From positions 1-18,261 of the forward strand of contig CAZRNP010000016.1 in assembly GCA_964601485.1 (NCBI GenBank): a stretch of 18,261 bases of DNA. The letters are read 5' to 3'. The notes under the pieces are model-generated. The model saw only the letters and a program-made list of their open reading frames with translations. It did no database searches and was not told where the DNA came from. This DNA is from an uncultured archaeon. Lineage in GTDB: Archaea > Aenigmatarchaeota > Aenigmatarchaeia > CG10238-14. The position numbers were made by a program, and so were the translations under genes. Of the stretch, positions 358 to 18,261 are shown in pieces (position 1 is the first letter of the stretch; each line of letters starts with the position of its first letter).

Positions 358-448
358 TGGACCGGCTGAGATTCGAACTCAGGGCCTTTCGGTTATCAGC
401 TTCGTCGTATAGTACTCGAACGCTCCAGCCAGGCTGAGCTACCGGTCC
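358..448 (-). tRNA. tRNA-Ile (anticodon GAU) with a 16-nt intron
   Basis: Minus strand reads GGACCGG-TA-GCTC-AGCCTGGCTG-GAGC-G-TTCG[AGTACTATACGACGAA]G-CTGATAA-CCGAA-AGGCC-CTGAG-TTCGAAT-CTCAG-CCGGTCC-A. This is a complete cloverleaf once the bracketed insert (plus-strand 401-416) is removed. Anticodon GAT is the complement of 395-397. CCA is not encoded. Confidence 0.85.
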
Positions 449-507: not shown

Positions 508-579
508 GGGCCGATAGATCAACGGTAGATCGCTTGCTCCGCAAGTAAGAGGCTGAGGGTTCAAATCCCTCTCGGTCCA
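508..579 (+). tRNA. tRNA-Ala (anticodon CGC), atypical anticodon loop
   Basis: GGGCCGA-TA-GATC-AACGGTA-GATC-G-CTTGC-TCCGCAA-GTAAG-AGGCT-GAGGG-TTCAAAT-CCCTC-TCGGTCC-A. The acceptor stem carries G3:U70, the alanine identity pair. Anticodon CGC is at 540-542. Position 33 is C rather than the near-universal U. Confidence 0.75.
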
Positions 580-2453: not shown

Positions 2454-4838
2454 ATGAAGAAAAAAATTTCGTTGCTGATCTTCTCAATTCTAATTATTTT
2501 TCTTTTAATATCAACAGTAAAAGCAGATGGTGGATTCTTCCCTCCAGTTTATTACAAGGAAGACTTGTTTGAACCGACTCAAAAAGCCGTTATATTTCAT
2601 AACAACGGTGAAGAAAGAATAGTACTTCAAGTTGAATACAGCGGTTCAATGAAAGATTTTGCATGGGTAGTTCCTACCCCAAGTTATCCTGTTGTTAACA
2701 AGTCAGATCCACTTTTATTTGAAGAACTCCACTATTTAACTGAACCGATTTATAGAAGAGCTCCTGAGTGGCCATTGTTTTGGGGTTATTATGGTTCTGC
2801 CCTAATGGCAGTAGATAAAGGGGGTGTCCAACTTCTTGAAAGATATCAAGTTGGAATTTATGATGTGAGTATTCTATCTGCAACAGACCCTAATGCCTTA
2901 ATTAATTGGTTGAACAATAACAATTATTCAATCCCTCAAACTGCAAGAGGTGTAATTCAGCATTACATCGATAAAAATTGGTATTTTATTGCGATTAGAA
3001 TAAATTTAGCACCGTACAACGAAAATCTTATATCAACTCTCAGGAAAATCGACAGTAGGGTTACTACTCAAGAAAATGCAGTCCAATATTTGACAGACGA
3101 TTTAGTGAATTATGTAAAGGATGGAAAATTATACGATGAGTTAACTGCGATAAGAAATACTAATATAGAGTACGGTGAGGAAACAAAAACAAAGGTACAA
3201 GAGTTACCATACATGTATCGAATGCGTTATGAAAGTGCTCCTACTAGATTGATTGATGAGAGGGAATATACAGAATTATATGAAAATTATAACGGCTATT
3301 TAGATGATCACTTAAGGAATGATATACAGAAAAATATAGAAAATAAACTCACTCAAAAAATAGAGATTCCTTACTCGGATAGTTGTTATGAAGGTCGTCA
3401 CTGGCAAACAGGTGTTGATTATTCTTATTGTTATGTTTGGTATTTTACAAAAAATTCAGAAGAATATAAAACCTTGAAGAGTGTTGATTGCGGTCAGTAT
3501 TGTTCTAGAGTTTCTCAAACAAAAACCCAGTATTCAGCGGATGACTTAGCATACGTGGCGGCTAATGCTATAATGAATGGAGATGAATATATTAAAAACT
3601 ATTTTGAAATAACTCAGACGCAAATTGACTGGTATCAGAATTCTAAACAACGTTTCGATTATGTTTTCAATCAAGTTAAAAATAAGTTAATGGTAAAGTT
3701 AAATCAAGATGCGAATAATCTACGTTTACAGCTTGAACAACAATTAGCTCAAGAATATTCCCAAAAAACAGGAATGACTTTCAGTAATGTGAATGGAATT
3801 GCATATTTCTTTGCCGATAAGACATTACAAGATATTAAAACTGATAAAACATTCTTAAATTCATACATCTACAGTTTTGGTTTGATTGATTCTGGTGAAT
3901 ATACCAATTACAAAAGATTACACGATGGAAATCACGATGAAATAGGACTTAGGACTGCGATGGAGGAAATTGTAGATAAAGTAGTCTATTTTGAATACGA
4001 ACAAGTGAAAGGACAGTTAAACGCTGGAACAGTTCAACCATTGATGATAACATTCTATTCTGATGAAATAGTTTATCCTTTGAAAATGTCATCGATGAAC
4101 AAAGGCGCTGCTGAAATTTTGTTGTATGTTTTTACGAATTATAGAGTAGAAATAAATGGGTTCAATGTAGAATACGCTAAATGGATCAAACCCGAGGATA
4201 TAAGAACTGAAAGTTATCTCGAGTACAAAAGACAATATGGGGATAAACCAGTTTCTGAAGTCCCTCAATATTATCGAAAAGATGTTTATTATTACCTCAA
4301 CCAACTGTTGGATGACAGATACTTTTTGACCAAGATGAGAAGATCTATGTACCCAAGTGAAATGGAAGATTTGGTAATAACACAAGCTAGAAACAACGAA
4401 GAATACAGGTTGATTACATATGAACCGGGTTATGCAATGAAATGGATAGGGTTCATTATTGGAATCGGTATTTTAAGTTTGATCCTTACAGTTTTTTTCA
4501 TACCGATCGGATGGTTAAGCAATAGGTTGACAAATAGAAATGAAAAATCCATTTATTATGTTACTAAAAAAAGATGCTTTTATTATGCCTTAATATTCAT
4601 GCTTTTATTGGGCTTAACTATTATATTTTCTACTGTTGCAAATGTTTATTGGGATGTTTTAAAACCATTTAGCTGGTTTTTTGAATTCCTATCACATTTA
4701 TTGAATTTCATCGGACTTCCAGGACTTTTAATCGGAATAATTCTGTTCATACTTGCTTTATCCTTGATATTTGCTATTATACATGTAATTTTCAGTTTTA
4801 TCATATCGATATTTAAAACTTCAAAAAAACAATATTGA
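2454..4838 (+). CDS. DUF2330-like secreted protein with a large insert and a C-terminal multi-TM region (794 aa)
   Basis: Signal peptide MKKKISLLIFSILIIFLLISTVKA. It is followed by DGGFFPPVYYKEDLFEPTQKAVIFHNNGEERIVLQVEYSGSMKDFAWVVPTPSYP, which matches my memory of the DUF2330 N-terminal signature (GGFF ... FAWVxPxPs). The middle is about 450 aa, rich in Y/N/E/K with a 4-Cys cluster. Four or more TM helices occupy the last ~170 aa. Confidence 0.85.
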   Translation: MKKKISLLIFSILIIFLLISTVKADGGFFPPVYYKEDLFEPTQKAVIFHNNGEERIVLQVEYSGSMKDFAWVVPTPSYPVVNKSDPLLFEELHYLTEPIYRRAPEWPLFWGYYGSALMAVDKGGVQLLERYQVGIYDVSILSATDPNALINWLNNNNYSIPQTARGVIQHYIDKNWYFIAIRINLAPYNENLISTLRKIDSRVTTQENAVQYLTDDLVNYVKDGKLYDELTAIRNTNIEYGEETKTKVQELPYMYRMRYESAPTRLIDEREYTELYENYNGYLDDHLRNDIQKNIENKLTQKIEIPYSDSCYEGRHWQTGVDYSYCYVWYFTKNSEEYKTLKSVDCGQYCSRVSQTKTQYSADDLAYVAANAIMNGDEYIKNYFEITQTQIDWYQNSKQRFDYVFNQVKNKLMVKLNQDANNLRLQLEQQLAQEYSQKTGMTFSNVNGIAYFFADKTLQDIKTDKTFLNSYIYSFGLIDSGEYTNYKRLHDGNHDEIGLRTAMEEIVDKVVYFEYEQVKGQLNAGTVQPLMITFYSDEIVYPLKMSSMNKGAAEILLYVFTNYRVEINGFNVEYAKWIKPEDIRTESYLEYKRQYGDKPVSEVPQYYRKDVYYYLNQLLDDRYFLTKMRRSMYPSEMEDLVITQARNNEEYRLITYEPGYAMKWIGFIIGIGILSLILTVFFIPIGWLSNRLTNRNEKSIYYVTKKRCFYYALIFMLLLGLTIIFSTVANVYWDVLKPFSWFFEFLSHLLNFIGLPGLLIGIILFILALSLIFAIIHVIFSFIISIFKTSKKQY

Positions 4839-5918: not shown

Positions 5919-7709
5919 TCATACTTTCGACCCCGAGTAACTGGCTCTAAATTCGCTTAAAAAGGGAATTGCATCAACTTCCTTCGAAGGGATGTGAATT
6001 GCAGTTCCCTTCATATAAGCTATCGAGTGAGAAGTATAATTTATTTCAAGTCTTTTAAGCATGTGCATAAATTGTTCGGGAAAATTTGGCCAATAGTTGA
6101 TAGTCGCTTCTGTAACCCGACCCCTATCCCAGATCGCTTGTTCAACGTAACCTCTTAAAAGATTTTCCCCCATCTTCGCTAGTTTCCATGCATTTTCTTC
6201 GTCAACTCTTTCTATACTGTTAAAATCTAAAATGGGGGATAGCTGTGAAGGGAGGCATCGAGCAAATCTCGTGTACTGACCTTTAAATTTTTTCTGTCCA
6301 AATTTTTTTAAACCTTCACCAGATTCTTTTCTTTCAGTTTTTGCGGGTTCGAAATCACCAAAAACCTTAAACCTTTCGAAAGATCTTTCCCCTAATGTCC
6401 TTCTTTCTCCGTAAGAAAAGGTAAAATTTTCATTTGAATAAGTAGTCTTTCCTTCAAATACAGAGCCGAATAGCATCCCTTGCATCTCTTCAGTAATCGG
6501 AAATTTTGGGTTTTTTATGATTAACCCTGCTCCAATTTTGGACCAATATCTTGGGTTATCTAATCTAATTCCAAGTTTTTCTATGGTATCTAACAGAGTT
6601 TTATTTATTACGCTCTTTCCTGTATAATACGTACTGACTATATCAGCTGCAATTCTCCCTATTTTTGAATGAACAGCATCTATATTCAATAAATAGGGTT
6701 TACCTTCATCAACCCAATTTAAAGCCAAAGAATAAGACCAAGGCCACTTATAAGATGTACACAAAACCCATTTCATTTTTTCGTTAGGGCTTCCCATTGC
6801 TTGAATAACTTTAGCTCTTTGCAAAGTTCCAAGGACTTCTTGTTTCTCTCTTATCTTTTGCAATGTAGTTTCAACTTGAGAAGTAGGGAGGAATTCCCCA
6901 AGTTTTTCTCTAAGGCTTTCAACCTTACTATAACCTGCTACGACTCCGTCTATTAATTCTAATAAAGGTTTTGGGTCAGTGTGGGTTTGAATTAATTCAA
7001 TCAAATCTTTTCTGGCCTCTAAGAAAGTCTTTGTAGAACCCCCGAGTCTCCTATCTATTTTTCTGATTGTTTCTCTTGCTTCATCCTTCTTCCCTCCATA
7101 AAGACCCATAGCATCAACCAATGCCTCCTCGTTCAAACCATAAGCTATGTAGTTGCTTATAGGCCCATAAAGTCCCCAATAGATTTTTTCAAAATCTTCT
7201 TTGATGATTCCAAAAGCTTCATGTAACGGATATCCTTTCAAGACTCTTAAATCTGCGACTTTTTCAAGGTCAGGAACTCCTCTGAAGAGAGTTTTAAGTA
7301 TAGGATGAACGGCAATTCCAAATGTGTAAAAAACTGCCTCTCTCTCTATGTATTCATTAGGATTTATTCCTCTTTCTAAAAGACGGGGTTCAGCTCTTTT
7401 ACCAGCTTCTAATAATATCTTTCTTTGATGTTCTCTCCAGATTCGTTCTTGTTTAAGCTCAGAGTTAATACCCCTAACTTGTTCAACTTCGCCTTTAAGA
7501 TCGGCATCAAACAAACGTTCAGCATGAAGTTCAACATCATGAGCGGTGGGATGAACCCTAATTCCTTCTACCTTAATTTCTTGAGTTTCAGCTTTTTTTA
7601 CTAAATCTTTAACCGCTTCATCTAATTGTTGTTCGAGTCTTTCCTCTTCGTCTTTCCAATGCCAAGACAGAGTATGACCTTCTGGTAGATTTCTCCAATC
7701 GATCTGCAT
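5919..7709 (-). CDS. conserved-looking cytosolic protein of unknown function (596 aa)
   Basis: Uninterrupted 1.8-kb ORF with an ATG start, balanced composition and no TM or signal peptide. I found no P-loop, HExxH, KxDG, class I/II aaRS or other diagnostic motif. Confidence 0.8.
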   Translation of the reverse strand: MQIDWRNLPEGHTLSWHWKDEEERLEQQLDEAVKDLVKKAETQEIKVEGIRVHPTAHDVELHAERLFDADLKGEVEQVRGINSELKQERIWREHQRKILLEAGKRAEPRLLERGINPNEYIEREAVFYTFGIAVHPILKTLFRGVPDLEKVADLRVLKGYPLHEAFGIIKEDFEKIYWGLYGPISNYIAYGLNEEALVDAMGLYGGKKDEARETIRKIDRRLGGSTKTFLEARKDLIELIQTHTDPKPLLELIDGVVAGYSKVESLREKLGEFLPTSQVETTLQKIREKQEVLGTLQRAKVIQAMGSPNEKMKWVLCTSYKWPWSYSLALNWVDEGKPYLLNIDAVHSKIGRIAADIVSTYYTGKSVINKTLLDTIEKLGIRLDNPRYWSKIGAGLIIKNPKFPITEEMQGMLFGSVFEGKTTYSNENFTFSYGERRTLGERSFERFKVFGDFEPAKTERKESGEGLKKFGQKKFKGQYTRFARCLPSQLSPILDFNSIERVDEENAWKLAKMGENLLRGYVEQAIWDRGRVTEATINYWPNFPEQFMHMLKRLEINYTSHSIAYMKGTAIHIPSKEVDAIPFLSEFRASYSGSKV

Positions 7710-10347: not shown

Positions 10348-11055
10348 ATGTATAGTCAAAGGAATAATGTTAATGACTGGGGATTGAAAAGAGAAAATAG
10401 TATTGATAATTATGCAAGAATTGTAAAGGCATCTATTGGCGGGATAAAAAAAACTAGATTAATGTCTGAAGCAGGTTTGAGTTTCACACAACTCAATGGA
10501 GTGAATAGACCGGATAAAAATACAGAGGGATATTTGAAAGAAGTTCTTTTATATCGATTAATAGAACCAAATAATGGAGATTATTGGACGACTGAGGAAG
10601 GTAAGGGATTTTTAAAACATTATCATAAGATGAGAAGTTATTTAAAACCAGGATATTCACCTAAATTCATTCCATCATCAAAACTACAAAGTACAAAACC
10701 CATTGTCGTTAAACAAAAAAAGAATGGAAAAAATCGTACTTTTTACGATATTATAGCTAGATGTGTAGAGGTATCAATTAACGGAATGAAAAAAACTAAA
10801 CTAATGTATGATGCGGGTTTGAACAATGAGAAATTAAAAGAATATAGGAATATACTCACAAGACTTGGATTAATGTTAGAAGAAGATAACAAGCTTTGGG
10901 CAACTGAAAAAGGTATTGAATTCTTAGAGGCTTATAAAATTACAAAGAATTATCTAAGAGACCCATCTGAGGTTTCAGTATCTATGCCAGTGCCACAAAC
11001 CATTATGCCAAATGGTAATGGTGGTTTTGTAAAAAATTTTCGTCAATTTAGTTAA
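10348..11055 (+). CDS. tandem winged-helix (HTH_45/DUF4364-like) DNA-binding protein
   Basis: Two internal repeats: NYARIVKASIGGIKKTRLMSEAGLSFTQL...YWTTEEGKGFLKHY and FYDIIARCVEVSINGMKKTKLMYDAGLNNEKLKEYRNILTRLGLMLEEDNKLWATEKGIEFLEAY. Each fits the archaeal wHTH pattern (G..KT.lMy.agL....l..Y...L...gLi......y.lTekG..fL..Y). A BRE/TATA-like GAAAGGTTTATATT lies ~35 nt upstream of the ATG. Confidence 0.8.
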   Translation: MYSQRNNVNDWGLKRENSIDNYARIVKASIGGIKKTRLMSEAGLSFTQLNGVNRPDKNTEGYLKEVLLYRLIEPNNGDYWTTEEGKGFLKHYHKMRSYLKPGYSPKFIPSSKLQSTKPIVVKQKKNGKNRTFYDIIARCVEVSINGMKKTKLMYDAGLNNEKLKEYRNILTRLGLMLEEDNKLWATEKGIEFLEAYKITKNYLRDPSEVSVSMPVPQTIMPNGNGGFVKNFRQFS

Positions 11056-11120
11056 AATCCTAAAACTTTTAAAAACTTAAATAAACGAATTATTAGTAAA
11101 AAGGAAAGAAATTATACACA

Positions 11121-11139
11121 GGTGGATACGATTTAACAC
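11121..11139 (+). repeat. 19-bp perfect direct repeat GGTGGATACGATTTAACAC (left copy)
   Basis: Identical to 12543-12561. Both copies are preceded by AAATTAT(A/T)-ACA. A second partial copy, TTTAACACAGAAT at 11159-11171, matches 12554-12566 at 12 of 13 positions. Confidence 0.9.
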
Positions 11140-11314
11140 ATATCATGATCAGGAAATCTTTAACACAGAATGCTTCTGAAAATTATAAATTCCCTAAGTT
11201 CTTATGGCCGAGGGAGATAATATCGTTCATGGACCCAATGAAATTAGAATCTCAAAGTTGATACAGTTACCAAAAAATCTATCTGATTCAGAAAAATAAA
11301 AAGAAAAGAAAGGT

Positions 11315-11482
11315 TTAAGCATCTCTAGCTTTCAATGTCTTTCTCCCATTTTCCTTTGCTCTATCAGCAGCCCTTTTAACCATAGCTGCTACATCTGTAT
11401 CAAGTCTCTTCAAGAACTCTTCACTTGCTCTTGCCTTTCCTTTAACTAATTCTCTAACTCCACTCTTAACGATTAAAGCCAT
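11315..11482 (-). CDS. small histone-fold protein (55 aa; archaeal histone / DUF1931-like), missing from the ORF track
   Basis: SD AAGGGGGTGG sits 6 nt upstream of ATG 11482. Translation is MALIVKSGVRELVKGKARASEEFLKRLDTDVAAMVKRAADRAKENGRKTLKARDA. The C-terminal A..A...GRKT(L/I)KA.D matches the L2/alpha3 junction signature of archaeal histones (HMf-type ...AGRKTIKAEDI). The protein ends right after it, so alpha3 is absent. Confidence 0.7.
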   Translation of the reverse strand: MALIVKSGVRELVKGKARASEEFLKRLDTDVAAMVKRAADRAKENGRKTLKARDA

Positions 11483-11540
11483 TTATTTCCACCCCCTTTA
11501 TGATTAAATTTTCATTTAATGGATTTAATATAATAGAAAA

Positions 11541-11666
11541 TCAAAAATATTTTCCTCTCTTCTTTCGCCTTATGTTGCTATCAAATGTATCCGACATGTG
11601 TGATAGTCTACCGAATTCATCAGGCATTATTTTCTTTTTTTGTGATGTGTAATAACCTTTTACCAT
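11541..11666 (-). CDS. possible 41-aa basic micro-protein
   Basis: Own translation is MVKGYYTSQKKKIMPDEFGRLSHMSDTFDSNIRRKKRGKYF. It has an ATG start but only a distant GAGGA upstream, and no homology was recognised. Confidence 0.25.
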   Translation of the reverse strand: MVKGYYTSQKKKIMPDEFGRLSHMSDTFDSNIRRKKRGKYF

Positions 11667-11727
11667 TTTATTTCTCTCATTATCCTCATGCTAAATCAAG
11701 TTGCTAAAAAAGAAAAGGGGTTAGTAT

Positions 11728-11826
11728 TTACTCGTTGCACACCAACGCTCTGTAACCCTCTGCCGCCATTCCTGAGACTAAATAAAACATTAATAGTCTC
11801 ATTGAAAATACTTTTAGTTTTTCCAT
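11728..11826 (-). CDS. possible 32-aa hydrophobic micro-protein (alternative frame to track ORF 11696..11878)
   Basis: SD AAGGTGA (complement of 11832-11838) sits 5 nt upstream of ATG 11826. Translation is MEKLKVFSMRLLMFYLVSGMAAEGYRALVCNE. The overlapping 60-aa track ORF starts at GTG without an SD. I cannot decide which frame, if either, is real. Confidence 0.3.
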   Translation of the reverse strand: MEKLKVFSMRLLMFYLVSGMAAEGYRALVCNE

Positions 11827-12090
11827 TAAACTCACCTTTCGGATTAATAATAACAAGAAGATGGTGGTAGTGTATCACCTTAAGGCACTATTCACTTCAA
11901 GTTCAAAGTCATTCAATAGTTAAATTAAAGTAATCTGTTATATTATATATGTATTATAAGTATTAATATATATCTATTATAGTATAAAATAAAAGTGTTA
12001 CACAATAAAGGAAATTAGGAAATGATAATGATTGGTGGTAGTTTCTAATTGACTTATATTCATCTTCTATGTCTTCTTCGTCTACTTTCT

Positions 12091-12288
12091 TCACCCAACG
12101 CCTCTTTTTTTATCGTCTTTTTTAATATCTTCTTTCTTTTTCTCCTGTTCTCCTTTCTTTTTCTTAACCTCTTTAGTTTTCATAATTGAATTTTCTTTTT
12201 CCAATCTATCTACTAGCTTGCTTGTTCTGCTATGATAAACTATTTTTTTGTGTTTCTTTATTTTCTTCATCCATAATGGTTCTTCCAT
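12091..12288 (-). CDS. possible 65-aa lysine/glutamate-rich protein (shorter form of track ORF 12091..12369)
   Basis: An internal ATG at 12288 is preceded by AAAGGA. Translation is MEEPLWMKKIKKHKKIVYHSRTSKLVDRLEKENSIMKTKEVKKKKGEQEKKKEDIKKDDKKRGVG. The sequence is low-complexity, so it could be a composition artefact. Confidence 0.3.
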   Translation of the reverse strand: MEEPLWMKKIKKHKKIVYHSRTSKLVDRLEKENSIMKTKEVKKKKGEQEKKKEDIKKDDKKRGVG

Positions 12289-12319
12289 AACTATCCTTTC
12301 TCTTATCGAGAATAAAAAT

Positions 12320-12391
12320 TTATTTGATTCTCCCTCTTGTATGTTTGCTACGATTAGGTTTACAACCACGACACCTTTTTTTATTTACCAT
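12320..12391 (-). CDS. possible 23-aa basic CxxC peptide
   Basis: A textbook SD AAGGTGA sits 7 nt upstream of ATG 12391. Translation is MVNKKRCRGCKPNRSKHTRGRIK. It overlaps the 5' part of the 92-aa track ORF in another frame. Confidence 0.3.
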   Translation of the reverse strand: MVNKKRCRGCKPNRSKHTRGRIK

Positions 12392-12542
12392 TTTTTTTCA
12401 CCTTATTTTAATTCTTTAATCTTTTGTTGAATTATATTCCTAAAGAACAAAAATTTATCTTTTTCCCAAATTATTCAATGGGATAAAGGATTTGAAAATA
12501 AAACAGTTAAAGATAAAAATGCCCTTATAAATTATTAACAGA

Positions 12543-12561
12543 GGTGGATACGATTTAACAC
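12543..12561 (+). repeat. 19-bp perfect direct repeat GGTGGATACGATTTAACAC (right copy, inside the aRF1 leader / open frame)
   Basis: Identical to 11121-11139. It lies within the stretch 12539-12589 that is open in the aRF1 frame. Confidence 0.9.
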
Positions 12562-12589
12562 TGAATCCTTAATCAAACTGAGAAAACTC

Positions 12590-13759
12590 TTGAAAACACT
12601 TGAGGGTTTCAAAGGAAGACATACAGAGCTCATTTCCTTGTACATTCCTTCTGGCTACAACATTCAGGAGATAATAGGGATGCTTAAACAGGAATATGCG
12701 TTGACGCAGAACGTTAAGTCTAGGGCGACAAGGCATAACGTCTTAGACGCATTGGAAAAAGTCATGAATTATTTGAGGTTGTTCAAAAAAACACCAATAA
12801 ACGGTTTAGTGGTATTCTGTGGTAATGTTTCAAAAACAGAAGGACAGCCTGAAATCAACCTGTGGTCTGTAGAACCACCTCAACCACTGGCCCAGAAGAT
12901 TTACTGGTGTGACCAGAAGTTCATCCTAGACCCTTTGAAGGACATGGTTAGGGAAAGGGAAGTTTATGGCCTGATCGTCATGGACACTGCTGGTGCTGAC
13001 ATAGGGTTTTTGAAAGGTAAAAAAATCATTCTAGAAAAACACATAGATTCTTTAGTGCCAGGGAAGACTATCAAAGGTGGAGCATCACAAAGAAGGTACC
13101 AAAGAATAAGGGACGAGGCTAAGAATGAACATCTGAAAAAGGTTGGGGAGATAGCATCCAAAATTTTCAAAGAAGAAAAGGATTTGAAAGGCATAATGGT
13201 CGGCGGGCCTGGTTTCGTAAAAGATGATTTCAAAGAAGGGGAGTTTTTAGATTATCAACTGAAACAAAAAATTATGGGTTTGGTCGATACGAGTGATACG
13301 GGTATGCCAGGACTGCAAGAAATGCTAAAAAGAGGGGAATCGTTGGTACAAGAGGCATCTGCAACCAAAGAAAGACATTTAATGGAGGAATTTTTCGAAC
13401 ACTTGAAAAAAGACGATGGCCTATCTGTTTATGGGCTAGAAGAAGTTAAACATGCCCTAGGATATGGAGCAGTAAAGATACTTTTAATGTCTGAAGGGTT
13501 TGACTGGAAAAGAACAAAGCTGGTTTGTTCATGTGGGTACAGCGTTGAGAAGGATATAAGCTCTGAAAGGGTAGAAAAATGTCCTAAATGCGGGAATGAC
13601 TTGAAAATAGAAGAAGAAAAAGAGTTGAGTGAAATTATATCAGAACAAGCCAAAAATTTGGGCTCAGAAGTAGAGATAATATCTTTAGACAGCAGGGATG
13701 GAGAACAATTCAAAGAGATAGGCGGAATTGGGGCGATTTTAAGGTATAAAATTAACTAA
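12590..13759 (+). CDS. prf1: peptide chain release factor aRF1 (eRF1 family) with a non-canonical GGQ region; 5' end uncertain
   Basis: The eRF1/aRF1 hallmarks appear in order: TELISLYIP, an NIKS-like NVKS (12710-12721), YxCxxxF as YWCDQKF, YGLIVMD, the GGQ-loop context PGKTIKGGASQRRYQRIRDE, GIMVGGPGFVKDDF, YGLEEVKHALGYGAVKILLMSE, and a CxC...CxxC mini-domain. The frame is open from 12539. The track start is TTG 12590. Confidence 0.9.
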   Translation: MKTLEGFKGRHTELISLYIPSGYNIQEIIGMLKQEYALTQNVKSRATRHNVLDALEKVMNYLRLFKKTPINGLVVFCGNVSKTEGQPEINLWSVEPPQPLAQKIYWCDQKFILDPLKDMVREREVYGLIVMDTAGADIGFLKGKKIILEKHIDSLVPGKTIKGGASQRRYQRIRDEAKNEHLKKVGEIASKIFKEEKDLKGIMVGGPGFVKDDFKEGEFLDYQLKQKIMGLVDTSDTGMPGLQEMLKRGESLVQEASATKERHLMEEFFEHLKKDDGLSVYGLEEVKHALGYGAVKILLMSEGFDWKRTKLVCSCGYSVEKDISSERVEKCPKCGNDLKIEEEKELSEIISEQAKNLGSEVEIISLDSRDGEQFKEIGGIGAILRYKIN

Positions 13760-13830: not shown

Positions 13831-14616
13831 TTGAAAGTAAGAGAAGTTCTTGTTTACAGGCCTGGTGAAGAGATCAACATAGTAGAAAAACCTTTTAGAT
13901 GGGGTTTCTCTCAGACACCATACATGATACCGATGCAGAGAGAACACGATGAAATCATGAAAGTCCTACAGAACGAAGGAGTCAAAGTAAATTATCTGAG
14001 AAAAATGATCGGTTTTAAACCAAAGATGTACGTCTTAAGAGATGATGCTGTTGTTGTGGACAGAAAAGCGGTTGCATGCCATCTTTCTCAGGGGATAAGG
14101 AGGGGTGAAGAACAGATAGTCAAGTTAACGTTGAAAGAACTTGGGATAAAAATAGCTGGACACATCTTTGTTCCTGGTGTTTTAGAGGGGAGTGATTTGT
14201 TCTTCACGAGTAAAAATCATGCCTTCGCCATCGTGGGACCAAGGACCAACATGGAAGGCGTAAACCATCTTAAGGAAATTTTCAAGATAGATGTAACATC
14301 GATCCAAATGGACAATCTTTCCAGCACGCAATTCAACATCATAAACGATATCGCTGTCATAGATGAAGAATTGTCTTATGGTCCCTTGTTTACCGCCTTG
14401 AAAGAAAAGGAATATGACCTAGTCATCGCATCAAAAAAACAAGTCAATGAGATGGCCTTGAACTTCTTGCAGATAGACGATAATAAGATTGTCAACGTAA
14501 AATCAGAAATCAACAAAAAACTAAAGATGATGGGCCTTGACGTGATAGAGGTAGAGATAAGAGACTTGATGAAAGGAAACACTGGTGTTAGGAATATCTG
14601 TTTACCCTTCTACTGA
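13831..14616 (+). CDS. pentein-fold enzyme (amidinotransferase / dimethylarginine dimethylaminohydrolase / arginine deiminase-like)
   Basis: The ~260-aa length is typical of DDAH-like proteins. The N-terminus VLVYRP...EH..i...L...GV.V..L, the central DLFF, and the C-terminal G.TGVRNICLPF carrying the expected catalytic Cys near the C-terminus all fit. The TTG start at 13831 is preceded by AGTGAT. The call comes from pattern memory only. Confidence 0.65.
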   Translation: MKVREVLVYRPGEEINIVEKPFRWGFSQTPYMIPMQREHDEIMKVLQNEGVKVNYLRKMIGFKPKMYVLRDDAVVVDRKAVACHLSQGIRRGEEQIVKLTLKELGIKIAGHIFVPGVLEGSDLFFTSKNHAFAIVGPRTNMEGVNHLKEIFKIDVTSIQMDNLSSTQFNIINDIAVIDEELSYGPLFTALKEKEYDLVIASKKQVNEMALNFLQIDDNKIVNVKSEINKKLKMMGLDVIEVEIRDLMKGNTGVRNICLPFY

Positions 14617-15099
14617 TTTTGAATACGTTACGTTTAGTTTAGAGGTTCGGACTATAATTTTTGTGAAATCTTTGTTCCAGTCGGTTTGAATCGCTGTGGT
14701 TTGCCCTGATTTTAAAGGATCTCTTGGTTTGTTGATTATGTTTACCTTATTCTCATCCACATAAACAGTGAAGTTAGAGATTTGTATTTTACCAGGGTTA
14801 GAAACAGTTATCAAAAGGTTGTTGTTAGAATCCCTAGAAACTTCTGATACCTCTATGTTTTGGAATATTCTCTTGATGTAATTAACAATGTCGAAAGAAG
14901 ATGGATTTTGTGGGAATAAAGGACCGATTATCGGTATTGACCTAAGGCTCGGTATCGAACCTAAGATGAGGTGACCGGCTATAAGCGCAAAAAATATTAA
15001 GATTAAACCTATAGCTAAGCTCTTGACTATTTTGATCATCGTGTAAACTATTACTGCTAAAATCAAAATGCCTATAATTATTGAAATGACCATGTTCAA
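14602..15099 (-). CDS. hypothetical membrane protein (two N-terminal TM helices plus a beta-rich extracellular domain)
   Basis: Track ORF. Its TTG start is at 15099 and an alternative ATG lies at 15093. TM helices are ISIIIGILILAVIVYTMI and LAIGLILIFFALIAGHLILG. The 3' end overlaps the convergent pentein gene by 15 nt. Confidence 0.6.
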   Translation of the reverse strand: MNMVISIIIGILILAVIVYTMIKIVKSLAIGLILIFFALIAGHLILGSIPSLRSIPIIGPLFPQNPSSFDIVNYIKRIFQNIEVSEVSRDSNNNLLITVSNPGKIQISNFTVYVDENKVNIINKPRDPLKSGQTTAIQTDWNKDFTKIIVRTSKLNVTYSKSVEG

Positions 15100-15190
15100 T
15101 ATATTTGTAGCAGAATTTAAGTATATTTCTCAGTGGTGTTTTCATTTTTTAATATTTTTAAAACCATACAAAATTATTTAAATTTAAACA

Positions 15191-15207
15191 TGGATAATTT
15201 ATCCAGG
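15191..15207. promoter_or_regulatory. 17-bp site TGGATAATTTATCCAGG (15-bp perfect palindrome TGGATAA-T-TTATCCA): putative operator, copy 1
   Basis: Ends 4 nt before ATG 15212 and lies 15 nt downstream of the TATA-like ATTTAAA (15176-15182). An identical 17-mer is at 17511-17527. Confidence 0.7.
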
Positions 15208-15211
15208 TTAC

Positions 15212-16903
15212 ATGAAAAGGATAATTTTGATTTTAATTTATTTTCAGATTATGATACTTCTGATATTACCACAATTTGTAGTTGCTAATTCGAACCTCAC
15301 TATAGCAATAGATTGGCTTAAAAAAAATCAGAGAGAAGATGGTTCCTATGGTTCTTGGACTGAACATTGGACTTCACCAGCAATGATAGCGCTCTATAAG
15401 AGCGAAGGTAATTCGTCTAATGTAACAACAGGTTTAAACTGGTTGAAGACCCAACTAGAAGATTCCTCTTCATGGTTCTGGGAAACATGGGGCGAAGCAG
15501 ATGTTCCTAGTATATCACTCTATGCTTTCACTCAAACAGACCATTTATCTGACATCGATCTATCCAATATCTCATCGAACATTCTCTCTTTTCAACAGAT
15601 GAGTGGCGGTTTCAAGGGATATTATGATCCAAATCTAGGCAGCCAAGTGGAAAGTAGTGTTGATACTACAATAGCAGTGTTGGGTTTAATAAATGCTAAT
15701 GCAATACCAGAAGAGAATAAGAATAAAGCAGTGAATTACTTGTTAAACCTGCAGAACTCAGACGGAAGTTTTAATCTAACACCCACCATACAATCTGATC
15801 CTTTATACTCTCACGCTCCTGAACCGATCAGTCTAACCGCGATGGTATTACTTACGCTGAAAGATTGTGGACTAGACACATCAAACACTTCTGTTCTGAA
15901 CGGAATGAACTATTTGAAAAATTCTGCTACCAATTGTTTTGATAATCACAGTTATGCTACTGCCTTATCATCAATAGTATTCGATCGATTCAACGAATTA
16001 AGTTATGAATTAATCGCGATAAATTGTTTAAAAAGTCTACAAAATCCAGATGGAGGGTTTTCAGATAGAATACGTACCACAAATGTTTCAAACGCTCTTG
16101 ATACTGGTTGGGCTGCTATCGCTCTACAAAAAGTTACACCGTTGATCAAAGTAGGAGTTTTAATCAGTTTTCCGAATGGAACAACATTTGCTCATTGCTT
16201 ACAATTACCGAATGGTTCAACCGCAGAAGATGCGTTAAAAGCCAGTGGTATGAAAACATTATGGGCATCTTTCAGTTTTGGTGATGCATTAACGAAGATT
16301 GAAGATGTAGGCTGTCCAACCTCAGATCCTTGGTGTCAATGTTCTAATATGAATGTTTGCTGTTTGCTCTGGAATTTTTGGATACTCAATTCAACCAATC
16401 AATGGAAATTCTCTCAAGTGGGATTTGGAGACTATAAGCTGAAAGATAAAGATGTATTTGGCAATATATGGGCGAGTGATGCAGGCAAAACACCTCCTTT
16501 ATTTTTATTCGATGAGATATGTCCTGATGGATTCACAATCAACAACAATTCCTTTGTTGGTGTTTACACTTGTGATTCAACTACGACAACCACGATTACG
16601 ACAACTTCTGTTGAAGTAACAACAACAGTCGTTGAGCATGGGGGTGGTGGTATGATCACAACTACGACAACGCAAACTACTGTTCCGATGACTACGACTA
16701 GTATTCAAACGACTACATCAACTACATTTTCACCTGCTCCAACTACAACAAGCACTGTCATTACAAACGTCACGAACAATCAGTTAAAGCCTAGTCCGTT
16801 AACAGGGTTTGTTGGTTTTATAATTTCTCCAGTTGGTATCGGTATAATTGTTGCAATAGTTGTCCTAGCATTTTTTGTTTATTTAATGTTGCCAGAGAGA
16901 TAG
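15212..16903 (+). CDS. surface-anchored protein: prenyltransferase/terpene-cyclase-like alpha/alpha toroid + DUF4430 (transcobalamin-beta-like) domain + Thr-rich stalk + C-terminal TM anchor
   Basis: Signal peptide MKRIILILIYFQIMILLILPQFVVA. There are six repeats of the type WL...Q..DGSyG / SGGFKGYY / LQNSDGSFN / LQNPDGGFSD (aa ~30-308). Aa ~312-421 read GVLISFPNGTT...GSTAEDALKASG...W.FWILN...QWKFSQVGFGDYKLKDKDVFGNIW, which fits the DUF4430 pattern. A poly-Thr stalk spans aa ~456-517. The C-terminus is PLTGFVGFIISPVGIGIIVAIVVLAFFVYLMLPER. Many N-x-S/T sequons are present. Confidence 0.85.
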   Translation: MKRIILILIYFQIMILLILPQFVVANSNLTIAIDWLKKNQREDGSYGSWTEHWTSPAMIALYKSEGNSSNVTTGLNWLKTQLEDSSSWFWETWGEADVPSISLYAFTQTDHLSDIDLSNISSNILSFQQMSGGFKGYYDPNLGSQVESSVDTTIAVLGLINANAIPEENKNKAVNYLLNLQNSDGSFNLTPTIQSDPLYSHAPEPISLTAMVLLTLKDCGLDTSNTSVLNGMNYLKNSATNCFDNHSYATALSSIVFDRFNELSYELIAINCLKSLQNPDGGFSDRIRTTNVSNALDTGWAAIALQKVTPLIKVGVLISFPNGTTFAHCLQLPNGSTAEDALKASGMKTLWASFSFGDALTKIEDVGCPTSDPWCQCSNMNVCCLLWNFWILNSTNQWKFSQVGFGDYKLKDKDVFGNIWASDAGKTPPLFLFDEICPDGFTINNNSFVGVYTCDSTTTTTITTTSVEVTTTVVEHGGGGMITTTTTQTTVPMTTTSIQTTTSTTFSPAPTTTSTVITNVTNNQLKPSPLTGFVGFIISPVGIGIIVAIVVLAFFVYLMLPER

Positions 16904-17470
16904 TGCTACTTTTATTGAAGCTTCTTCTGATATTTTTTTCGTAGAACCTGAGCCTATTATTATGACATCTCCGTTCTCAACCTTGAAATGGTTACGGAGG
17001 ATTTTTTCCAATCCTGTAATTTTTCTGTTGCATCCTGGGAATATTAGTCTGTTATTATTACAAACCAAAGTTGTTGCGCCATCAGCTCCTATTTTTATAG
17101 CCTCGTCCCTCTGCTCGATGCCGAATTTAACTTTTTTTGATGAGCCTTTAACAAGAATTGCAGTGTTGTACTTTCCGATTGTGCATTCACTCGTGTCTAT
17201 TTCTATAGGTTTTGAGATTTTCATCAGGATTTTTTTCAACAGTTCATTCCCTTTTTCAGTCAGTACATGCCCTTTAGTAGAAGGCTTAATTAATTTATTC
17301 ATTTTCAGACGCTTTACAAGAGTTTTAATCGTAGCTTCCCCCATTTCCATTTCTTTCATCAGTTGAAACCTTCCCATGGGTTTTTCGGAGAGTAAAAAAA
17401 GGGTCTTAACTATATGGACAGGGGAATAAGATGCCCTGACATCGATCAAATCTTTAAACATGTTATCCAT
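16883..17470 (-). CDS. winged-helix transcriptional regulator with an uncharacterised C-terminal domain (possibly the archaeal DUF4443 family)
   Basis: The N-terminus IVKTLFLLSEKPMGRFQLMKEMEMGEATIKTLVKRLKMNKLIKPSTKGHVLTEKGNELL is a MarR/PadR-like wHTH. The C-terminal ~110 aa (GADGATTLV...IIIGSGS) look like a small-ligand-binding or dimerisation domain. The gene is divergent from the S-component-like gene, and its 3' end overlaps the 563-aa gene by 21 nt. Confidence 0.75.
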   Translation of the reverse strand: MDNMFKDLIDVRASYSPVHIVKTLFLLSEKPMGRFQLMKEMEMGEATIKTLVKRLKMNKLIKPSTKGHVLTEKGNELLKKILMKISKPIEIDTSECTIGKYNTAILVKGSSKKVKFGIEQRDEAIKIGADGATTLVCNNNRLIFPGCNRKITGLEKILRNHFKVENGDVIIIGSGSTKKISEEASIKVALSLWQH

Positions 17471-17510
17471 ATGTATATTTTATAATCAAAAGATTTAAAA
17501 AATTAAAAAT

Positions 17511-17527
17511 TGGATAATTTATCCAGG
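17511..17527. promoter_or_regulatory. 17-bp site TGGATAATTTATCCAGG: putative operator, copy 2
   Basis: Identical to 15191-15207. It ends 8 nt before ATG 17536 (3 nt before an out-of-frame ATG at 17531) and lies 18 nt downstream of the TATA-like ATTTAAA (17493-17499). It sits in the divergent intergenic region shared with the regulator gene, whose start is at 17470. Confidence 0.7.
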
Positions 17528-17535
17528 ATCATGCC

Positions 17536-18261
17536 ATGGAACAAGAATTAAAACAAAAAAGTCAACAGGGAACTTTACTTTTGTCTGCTCAAAGGACGAA
17601 ATATTCCTTGAAGAGAAAATTGTTATTAATGATGGGTTTAACTTCCTTAGGAATCTTAGGAAGGGCTGCATTCCAATTCATACCGAGCGTTGAACCCTTG
17701 ACGCCCTTGGCTATATTGACTGGGTTTTTACTTGGCCCGATTTCTGGTTTTATTTCTGGTGTTGTTGGTTTTTATCTATCCAATTTTCTCGTTTGGGGTT
17801 TTCAAGGGCCTTGGACTGTTTTCCAATGTTTGGGTGCAGGTCTGGCAGGTTTCATCGGTGGGTTGATAGGAAAGTTAGGGAAGAAATCGAGGACAAAATT
17901 TTTAATATCCACTTTAATAGGGATAATCGTTTATGAGATAATTGTGACTGTTTCCATGGGAATGATGTTCTCTTTACCATTGTTAGTGTTCTATACAATA
18001 ACTAGTATTCCATTCTCTATAGTTCATTTGTCGAGTAGCTTAGGTTTTTCCCTATCATTTTACGAGTTCAAAGAACAGATAAAAAAATTGAAGGGTGGTT
18101 TAGTTGAAAAAGAGATACTTGGCTTCAGGGTTGCTCATAGTAGTACTGGCAAGCCTGGTAATAAACTTGTACCTTACCTTTACTCCAGAAAAATCCACAG
18201 AAAAGATAAGGGTAGTAGCAAGGATAGATTTTGGTGCTTCAGAAAAGACAAAGACAGTTGA
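17536..18261 (+). CDS. polytopic membrane protein resembling an ECF-transporter substrate-specific (S) component, with a basic C-terminal tail
   Basis: Five to six TM helices. The stretch IPSVEPLTPLAILTGFLLGPISGFISGVVGFYLSNFLVWGFQGPWTVFQCLGAGLAGFIGGLIG fits the general S-component pattern (P.v.P.t...ilaG.llGp..Gf..G....l.sn.l.g.G.W..fQ....l.G...G). The TGA stop is at the last base of the window. Family assignment comes from pattern memory only. Confidence 0.6.
   Translation: MEQELKQKSQQGTLLLSAQRTKYSLKRKLLLMMGLTSLGILGRAAFQFIPSVEPLTPLAILTGFLLGPISGFISGVVGFYLSNFLVWGFQGPWTVFQCLGAGLAGFIGGLIGKLGKKSRTKFLISTLIGIIVYEIIVTVSMGMMFSLPLLVFYTITSIPFSIVHLSSSLGFSLSFYEFKEQIKKLKGGLVEKEILGFRVAHSSTGKPGNKLVPYLYSRKIHRKDKGSSKDRFWCFRKDKDS

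Follow-up and report, generated by a model that had tools for sequence, protein, structure and literature searches.

Among described systems, the closest to the one considered here is ECF-CbrT (PDB 6FNP), the vitamin B12 transporter of ECF (energy-coupling factor) type in Lactobacillus delbrueckii, whose substrate-specific component (S-component) CbrT needs an ECF module and is encoded in the cluster nrdJ-cbrS-cbrT-pduO (PMC5997447, Santos et al. 2018). BtuM is a solitary S-component-like B12 transporter that works alone (PMC6072759). For the cell surface, Burroughs et al. 2007 (PMC1796856) predicted that prokaryotic proteins joining an alpha/alpha toroid to an SLBB domain scavenge B12, and described DUF4430 as the beta-grasp (SLBB) domain in contact with B12. 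The same domain forms the C-terminal domain of vertebrate transcobalamins. With regard to control, bacterial cobalt transporters were identified through their regulation by adenosylcobalamin riboswitches. BtuFCD and CbrT belong to the same bacterial riboswitch regulons. Here we analysed an 18,261-nt stretch of contig CAZRNP010000016.1 from an uncultured archaeon (the whole stretch is hereafter called the window), the last part of which encodes a stalked toroid surface protein, a predicted DUF4443 repressor, a CbrT-like S-component and a CbrS-like DUF4430 protein. We consider it probable that the organism, a tiny Aenigmatarchaeota-like DPANN archaeon of the symbiotic type, uses these genes as a module for scavenging corrinoids (vitamin B12-type compounds).

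Gene content and conservation of the locus

The window is AT-rich archaeal DNA (30-40% GC), and the closest relatives of its proteins are found in metagenome-assembled genomes (MAGs) of Aenigmatarchaeota and Micrarchaeota. A preliminary description of the locus had proposed that three adjacent genes, for a surface toroid on a stalk (gene 1), a winged helix-turn-helix (wHTH) regulator (gene 2) and an ECF S-component (gene 3), form a coherent unit. All three are present in the sequence, the regulator carrying a DUF4443 domain in addition (Table 1). The perfect palindrome TGGATAATTTATCCA (TGGATAA-T-TTATCCA) precedes genes 1 and 3 by 14-18 nt, and the copies, which had been called identical, are part of an exact 17-mer, TGGATAATTTATCCAGG, that occurs twice (15191-15207 and 17511-17527). 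A check of synteny agreed with the idea of a coherent, co-regulated unit, the arrangement persisting in relatives down to 35-38% identity. Conserved synteny together with the shared operator led us to reject a chance adjacency of three unrelated genes, and we confirmed that the observed gene set and palindrome lie far beyond chance. The number of genes, in contrast, had been set too low. The module comprises at least four, with a CbrS-like DUF4430 gene (gene 4) overlapping the 3' end of gene 3. The regulator had also been underrated, as DUF4443 and the operator mark a predicted pan-archaeal cobalt/corrinoid transport regulon.

Table 1. Coordinates of the module and associated features (window positions unless a locus is named)
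Feature	Position	Strand	Description
Gene 1	15212..16903	+	563 aa, predicted stalked surface capture protein
Gene 2	16883..17470	-	195 aa, PH0730-like wHTH (~20-86) and DUF4443 (98-192), predicted repressor
Gene 3	17536..18261	+	241 aa, CbrT-like ECF-type S-component
Gene 4 (5' part, cut by window end)	18104..18261	+	Membrane-anchored, DUF4430/CbrS-like; overlaps gene 3 by 158 nt out of frame
Operator 1	15191..15205	.	Centre 14 nt upstream of gene 1 ATG
Operator 2	17511..17525	.	Centre 18 nt upstream of gene 3 ATG and 48 nt upstream of gene 2 ATG
Putative TATA-like AT-rich element, gene 1 promoter	15173..15188	+	Predicted from sequence
Putative TATA-like AT-rich element, gene 3 promoter	17492..17509	+	Common to the promoter region of divergent gene 2
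Beta-propeller protein of locus L015	6557-8821 (L015)	-	754 aa, beta-propeller (PQQ_2/FG-GAP), CARDB and Thr-stalk; operator 14 nt upstream
Possible fifth member (uncertain)	14602..15099	-	165-aa membrane protein, weak CARDB-like domain, divergent from gene 1

A CbrT-like S-component paired with a DUF4430 gene

The product of gene 3 has six transmembrane (TM) helices, is extended at both termini on the cytoplasmic side, and scored above the curated cut-offs of both PF12822 (36.3 bits; cut-off 30.7) and PF07155 (29.8 bits; cut-off 26.7). When the single sequence was searched against the PDB, one chain was matched, CbrT (6fnp_A, E 1.5e-6). A profile of the family (43 members) again recovered 6fnp_A as the sole S-component (E 7.7e-13), the next matches being unrelated proteins with E-values of at least 0.08. 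The earlier suggestion of an S-component of the CbrT class was therefore well founded, and on sequence comparison gene 3 is specifically related to CbrT among S-components. The AlphaFold2 (AF2) model of gene 3 has a predicted local distance difference test (pLDDT) score of 83 and displays six long helices in an S-component fold; beta strands are modelled in the C-terminal tail that is overlapped by gene 4 (pLDDT 50-75). An attempt to single out CbrT by structure with Foldseek failed. S-components look alike, and FolT and RibU came first, with ThiT, BioY and PanT also among the best matches (target-normalised TM-scores 0.6-0.73).

The translation of gene 4 begins LKKRYLASGLLIVVLASLVINLYLTF, a signal anchor, and the window's own contig (18305 nt) ends within this gene. 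Three close relatives (L001, L002 and L015) have an open reading frame (ORF) that overlaps the S-component gene over its final 158 nt; the predicted product of 135 aa combines an N-terminal signal anchor with DUF4430, and the full-length orthologue in L001 (10845-11252) matched a purpose-built DUF4430 hidden Markov model (HMM) with an E-value of 1.6e-30. A small DUF4430 gene likewise follows the S-component gene in L007, L009, L011, L015, L026 and L095. Each archaeal relative that we checked (38-98% identity) had the pair, including relatives of gene 3 with a small overlapping DUF4430 gene downstream in L007 (55% identity), L009 (48%), L011 (38%) and the nanohaloarchaeal L095 (45%). The predicted overlap of the two coding frames measures 158 nt in the window clade and 38-56 nt in independent gene calls elsewhere, or more if the signal anchor is counted. 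Two independent Logan contigs, L001 and L002, both end 89 nt past the gene 4 stop; this recurrent assembly break just downstream of gene 4 perhaps marks a repeat or a strain-variable region.

Comparison with Lactobacillus helveticus clarified the identity of the pair. The locus in that species (L013) has the order class II ribonucleotide reductase, 136-aa DUF4430 protein, CbrT homologue and PduO adenosyltransferase, and its CbrT homologue shares 64% identity with the fragment of CbrT used as query. Because the 136-aa DUF4430 gene occupies the cbrS position, CbrS is a DUF4430 protein. The locus had been presented as an undescribed system; judged by homology, its transport core is instead an archaeal cbrS/cbrT homologue, the counterpart of the Lactobacillus nrdJ-cbrS-cbrT-pduO cluster, and the combination of toroid and SLBB domain had been predicted for scavengers in 2007. 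The comparison would thus extend the CbrS/CbrT uptake system to archaea.

The archaeal pair resembles ECF-CbrT in that the S-components are homologous, in that the S-component is paired directly with a small, signal-anchored DUF4430 gene of the CbrS type, and in that no ECF module lies next to the pair (the group II arrangement). It differs in its archaeal host, in the size of the S-component (241 aa, including additional segments at both termini, versus 174-182 aa), in the inverted order with the S-component first, in the out-of-frame overlap and in the addition of a stalked toroid-SLBB protein. It is also unlinked to nrdJ and pduO, and its control is predicted to depend on a DUF4443 repressor and operator. 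As the preliminary description had noted for EcfA, EcfA' and EcfT, neither an ECF ATPase nor a T component was found beside the S-component, and no ABC or ECF ATPase adjoined it, in 30 archaeal loci. One ABC ATPase motif was detected more than 5 kb off, and the sole ABC_tran gene in the pre-annotated neighbourhoods was an unrelated one, 8 kb away in L001. Gene 3 shares with BtuM a small six-TM S-component fold and possible action without an ECF module. In contrast to this likeness, there is no detectable sequence similarity between the two (the PDB search gave CbrT only), and BtuM is a Gram-negative protein with a Cys ligand.

The stalked surface protein

The product of gene 1 consists of a signal peptide (residues 1-25), an alpha/alpha toroid (~26-306), a beta domain (~310-450), a Thr-rich linker (452-527, 43% Thr) and a C-terminal TM segment (532-560). 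It had been described as a toroid followed by DUF4430, and the two halves of this claim fared differently. The toroid is supported by Pfam matches (PF13243, 1.3e-12; PF00432, 2.4e-9; PF07678, 4e-9) and by the AF2 model of the ectodomain, with pLDDT 82 overall and >90 across the toroid. The beta domain, of ~140 residues and bearing a Cys-rich insert, is SLBB/DUF4430-like, and its alignment to bona fide DUF4430 proteins with hhalign was weak (probability 50%, E 1.6e-4). A direct Pfam assignment of this domain to DUF4430 (PF14478, curated cut-off 23.8 bits) was rejected, as there was no match. A homologue, P0006, whose beta domain is 56% identical to that of gene 1, scored 22.7 bits against the same 23.8-bit cut-off.

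In a Foldseek search with the gene 1 model, transcobalamin (2bb6_A) ranked second (E 1.8e-7) with both domains aligned, and haptocorrin aligned likewise; the full-length alignments to transcobalamin have a root-mean-square deviation of ~24 A. Terpene cyclases, thioester-containing (TED) domains and AprG aligned to the toroid part only. Like transcobalamin, intrinsic factor, haptocorrin and the prokaryotic toroid-SLBB proteins, the gene 1 product is predicted to be secreted or surface-located, with a toroid followed by an SLBB-like beta domain. Unlike transcobalamin, it carries a Cys-rich insert and a marginal DUF4430 profile, is tethered by its Thr-rich stalk and C-terminal TM segment, and lacks the eukaryotic Cobalamin_bind domain (PF01122) among its Pfam matches. 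It also differs from the toroid-SLBB proteins described in 2007 in that those stand in operons with CbiO/CbiQ, which are absent here (PMC1796856). As the sequence evidence for DUF4430 in gene 1 is weak, we accept 'transcobalamin-like' as a description of its architecture and not of family membership.

Toroid proteins accompany the S-component/DUF4430 pair in three separate lineages, namely the window clade (L001-L004), L006 and L011/L012. In L006 the gene 1 homologue is 35% identical, and the order is membrane protein, DUF4430, DUF4443, then, in divergent orientation, DUF4430 (356 aa) and toroid. In L011/L012 the order is S-component, DUF4430, 256-aa protein, toroid. The toroid gene is absent from L007, L009 and L095, and in L015, an Aenigmatarchaeota MAG with a regulator 88% identical to gene 2, it is swapped for the beta-propeller gene listed in Table 1. 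Its absence from L007 and L009 and its exchange in L015 mark the toroid protein as an accessory of the module that can be replaced. BtuG of Bacteroides is a surface beta-propeller that traps B12. The L015 protein, which is loosely reminiscent of BtuG, may be an alternative surface trap. A beta-propeller gene also adjoins a toroid-DUF4430 gene in L005. The contexts of P0090/L005 and P0195/L096 contained no regulator and no clear pair and were uninformative.

The same distribution raises the question of whether gene 1 is a ligand trap. Its product could have a general function at the surface, for example in adhesion, in the binding of glycans or terpenoids or as part of the envelope, and be co-regulated without capturing the ligand, leaving genes 3 and 4 alone to constitute the uptake system. 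Such a role would suit several findings: most homologues of the toroid consist of a toroid only or add PKD or dockerin domains, many S-component/DUF4430 loci have no toroid gene, and the assignment of the C-terminal domain to DUF4430 is weak. We nonetheless consider it very improbable, given that gene 1 has its own copy of the operator, that a toroid protein stands with the pair in three lineages, that toroid plus SLBB is the architecture with which transcobalamin sandwiches B12, and that BtuG offers a bacterial precedent for the beta-propeller replacement.

A conserved operator

Within the window, a search for the palindrome at up to three mismatches gave four matches versus 0.09 expected, and none of 200 shuffles reached four matches. 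Each operator lies directly downstream of an AT-rich TATA-like stretch, for which we infer promoter function from archaeal promoter geometry. The gene 1 element is part of a 28-nt block that is 89% identical between both promoters, and the gene 3 element is conserved in L015. Operator 1 occupies the same position in L001-L004, and the geometry of operator 2 is repeated in L001, L002 and L015. The start of gene 2 (ATGGATAAC) includes the operator half-site TGGATAA.

Extending the analysis to 1.15 Mb of loci, with shuffled sequences for comparison, yielded a pan-archaeal consensus of t-TGGAT-RRWYT-ATCCA-a (60 unique sites) with the core TGGAT-N5-ATCCA. At up to one mismatch, 155 sites were observed against 36 expected, and 80 of the 155 fall within 200 nt upstream of target gene families. 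The distance from operator to start codon is 10-23 nt for S-component, toroid and DUF6580-type genes, 45 nt for cbtB, ~86 nt for NiCoT and ~57 nt for the regulator gene itself, and an operator lies within 2.5 kb of the regulator in 67 of 80 loci. On these comparisons we take the palindrome for a true operator retained in evolution, with its conservation and placement observed across archaeal phyla.

Riboswitch control was rejected, as there was no Rfam match at E<=1 in 14900-18261 and the whole window yielded two tRNAs only. This accords with the expectation in the preliminary description that control is exerted by a protein. The predicted targets of the archaeal operator belong to the same classes as those of the bacterial cobalamin riboswitch regulon (CbtAB, NiCoT, BtuFCD-type ABC transporters and CbrT-type S-components); the difference is that a DNA operator and, as predicted, a wHTH protein take the place of RNA.

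The DUF4443 regulator and its neighbourhoods

Gene 2 matched both the PH0730-like wHTH (PF22167, 2.4e-14) and DUF4443 (PF14544, 5.4e-30). It also matched PH0730 (PDB 2p8t), a 'hypothetical protein' that structural genomics contributed from Pyrococcus horikoshii and the type member of the combination PH0730-like_N plus DUF4443. The E-value was 1.5e-21 when the single sequence was searched and 1.3e-51 with the family profile, and the two proteins have the same two-domain architecture. The 3' ends of the convergent genes 1 and 2 overlap by 21 nt (16883-16903). The DUF4443 family contains 455 clusters at 50% identity (E<=1e-10). An alignment scan with one genome per species gave 229 relatives, of which the best 80, all archaeal, were analysed, their neighbourhoods being annotated with Pfam and purpose-built HMMs. 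In 68 of these 80 loci the regulator gene adjoins genes for corrinoid-type or cobalt-type transporters. DUF4430 together with a CbrT-like or DUF6580-like membrane gene was found in 20 loci (Aenigmatarchaeota, Bathyarchaeia, Hadarchaeota and Thermoplasmatales), and CbtB/CbtA or NiCoT cobalt transporters in 48 (Thaumarchaeota and Thermoproteota). Neither class was present in the remaining 12 loci, which come from mixed lineages. In two of these 12 (L058 and L092), the regulator stands at the end of an operon for a substrate-binding protein (SBP), a FecCD permease and an ATPase, resembling BtuFCD. The permease and ATPase had BtuC and a corrinoid ABC ATPase as their best NCBIfam matches, both below curated cut-offs. 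In the same two loci, both from Thaumarchaeota, a DUF6925 gene adjoins the DUF4443 gene (L058, 6205-7233, minus strand; L092, 8636-9673, minus strand). An operator-like site lies 40-75 nt upstream of it (L092 9740, L058 7267), making DUF6925 a further candidate member of the regulon.

These neighbourhoods bear on what the regulator senses. The commonest neighbours of DUF4443, CbtAB and NiCoT, are metal transporters, and the wHTH gives weak matches to helix-turn-helix domains of the DtxR/MntR metalloregulator type. DUF4443 proteins could on these grounds sense cobalt ions and govern a metal-homeostasis regulon, in which cobalt would control the S-component/DUF4430 pair or even be the substrate that the pair imports. 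We treat cobalt as effector as a serious alternative, which we rate as unlikely. DUF4443 has no conserved His or Cys, its invariant positions being occupied by E, R, D, G, A and D, and an organic ligand therefore fits better than a Co(II) site. CbrT carries cobalamin and cobinamide, and bacteria keep all four transporter classes named above under control of the end product, B12. Corrin synthesis is generally expected to be absent from reduced genomes of the DPANN type, which would gain nothing from linking corrinoid uptake to free cobalt.

A corrinoid effector, in comparison, would be the only ligand that makes sense both for the cobalt importers of B12 producers and for the corrinoid importers of reduced DPANN archaea. 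Other features of the family gave no further clue to the ligand. DUF4443 as an intracellular domain of the SLBB/DUF4430 type, which would imply direct binding of B12, was rejected (hhalign probability 0.1%). A profile of the C-terminal domain matched only PH0730 in the PDB. The only domain found fused to DUF4443 was DUF2111, an archaeal domain of undescribed function, which some of the regulators carry, in either order (P0328, P0381, P0383, P0393 and P0419).

A different substrate for the same architecture would be haem, another tetrapyrrole or a metal chelate, imported by the system and sensed by its regulator. The Lactobacillus sakei operon lsa1836-1840, compared here by its description, also combines separate toroid-like and SLBB-like extracellular proteins, regarded as transcobalamin-like alpha and beta subunits, with an ECF-type transporter, and was assigned to haem uptake; it differs from the archaeal locus in being bacterial and in containing ATPase and T components (bioRxiv 10.1101/864751). 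For the SLBB proteins of archaea, Burroughs et al. (PMC1796856) raised the possibility that a distinct metabolite is scavenged, and thaumarchaeal SBPs under the same operator had the haem-binding IsdE as their best, weak NCBIfam match. Against these stand the specific match of the S-component family to CbrT, the presence of the same regulator and operator at CbtAB and NiCoT in 48 loci, which fits cobalt/corrinoid and not iron/haem, and the permease and ATPase of the ABC operons, whose highest scores are with BtuC and the corrinoid ABC ATPase, if below curated cut-offs. We regard a haem-type substrate as distinctly unlikely.

For a corrinoid-sensing regulator, the broader reading is that DUF4443/PH0730-like proteins are archaeal corrinoid-responsive repressors, doing as proteins what the B12 riboswitch does in bacteria. 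Through t-TGGAT-N5-ATCCA-a they would govern a multi-phylum regulon that takes in CbtAB and NiCoT for cobalt and, for corrinoids, BtuFCD-like transporters and CbrS/CbrT-like pairs whose stalked traps are transcobalamin-like or beta-propellers. We hold the chances of this reading to be about even. The predicted regulon reaches from ammonia-oxidising Thaumarchaeota to Hadarchaeota, Bathyarchaeia and DPANN. Ammonia-oxidising Thaumarchaeota are major environmental B12 producers. We found no described mechanism for archaeal regulation of cobalt or B12 acquisition in the literature, and nothing relevant on DUF4443/PH0730 function, ligand, operator or 'CBL-box' in the searchable literature, although an earlier description cannot be excluded. 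The assignment of this regulator and operator to cobalt/corrinoid transport across archaea appears to be the new part of the finding. In 2003 Rodionov and colleagues reportedly put forward a 'CBL-box' in archaea, attributed to a hypothetical B12 regulator; this box may be the present operator, and DUF4443 proteins may be that regulator. With a small regulator family of solved structure (2P8T), a 15-bp operator and a predicted regulon, the locus offers a testable candidate.

Proposed route of uptake

Taken as a corrinoid scavenging module, the locus suggests the following sequence of events, in which we infer the ligand, the repression, the order of hand-over and the source of energy. The gene 1 protein, on its tall, Thr-rich and probably glycosylated stalk, would capture the corrinoid outside the cell. 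The membrane-anchored CbrS homologue encoded by gene 4 would then take over the ligand, or bind it separately. The CbrT-like gene 3 protein, for which homology is established and the substrate predicted, would move the ligand across the membrane, powered by an ECF module encoded elsewhere or acting as a solitary protein like BtuM. A dimer of the gene 2 protein would bind TGGAT-N5-ATCCA, which lies downstream of the TATA-like element and ahead of the start codon, and would repress genes 1, 3 and 4 when the effector, most simply a corrinoid, is plentiful. Repression is proposed because the operator geometry is typical of archaeal repressors.

Several observations weigh against corrinoid uptake. 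CbrT requires an ECF module, yet none was present within 8-10 kb across the 30 archaeal loci, and no B12-dependent enzyme or B12 salvage gene adjoins the module in archaeal loci. The identity of gene 3 to CbrT is low, and Foldseek places other S-components above CbrT, so that the fold alone is silent on the substrate. For gene 1, the beta domain did not match Pfam DUF4430 at E<=10, its Cys-rich central insert was modelled by AF2 with low confidence, and terpene cyclases and alpha-2-macroglobulin TED domains match the toroid with Foldseek E-values similar to that of transcobalamin. Corrinoid binding and transport by the archaeal members are predicted by comparison, and both the haem assignment in L. 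sakei and the suggestion of a distinct metabolite for archaeal SLBB proteins count on the same side. Cobalt sensing, a haem-type substrate and a general surface role for gene 1 are, however, all less consistent with the CbrT-specific homology and the cobalt/corrinoid content of the regulon.

Corrinoid scavenging would assign a testable role to CbrS/DUF4430 and to full-length transcobalamin-like proteins of prokaryotes, and suggests how ultra-small, probably auxotrophic archaea may catch an expensive cofactor at their surface. If true, the module would be the route by which DPANN archaea obtain B12 from their host or community.

Neighbouring genes and other features of the window

The gene divergent from gene 1 is possibly the module's fifth component, or it may simply be a neighbour that has stayed in place. 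It is syntenic in L001, L003 and L004, and in L015 (8940-9431) its product is 83% identical although gene 1 is replaced there. An operator lies ~92-105 nt upstream of its start. Family searches gave no functional annotation beyond the weak CARDB-like domain.

Elsewhere the window encodes eRF1, a class I tRNA synthetase and two divergent tRNAs (358-448, minus strand; 508-579, plus strand). The minus-strand tRNA is 91 nt long compared with the 71-position tRNA model and may hold an intron. A 794-aa DUF2330 protein with a multi-TM C-terminus is encoded at 2454-4838 (plus strand), and a 596-aa ORF at 5919-7709 (minus strand) had zero Pfam matches. The 1.5-kb interval 11055-12590, of 30% GC, is without an ORF of at least 100 aa. 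In L001 the equivalent interval carries ABC_tran, HMA, DsbD/cupredoxin and methyltransferase genes, and gene content thus differs here between close relatives.

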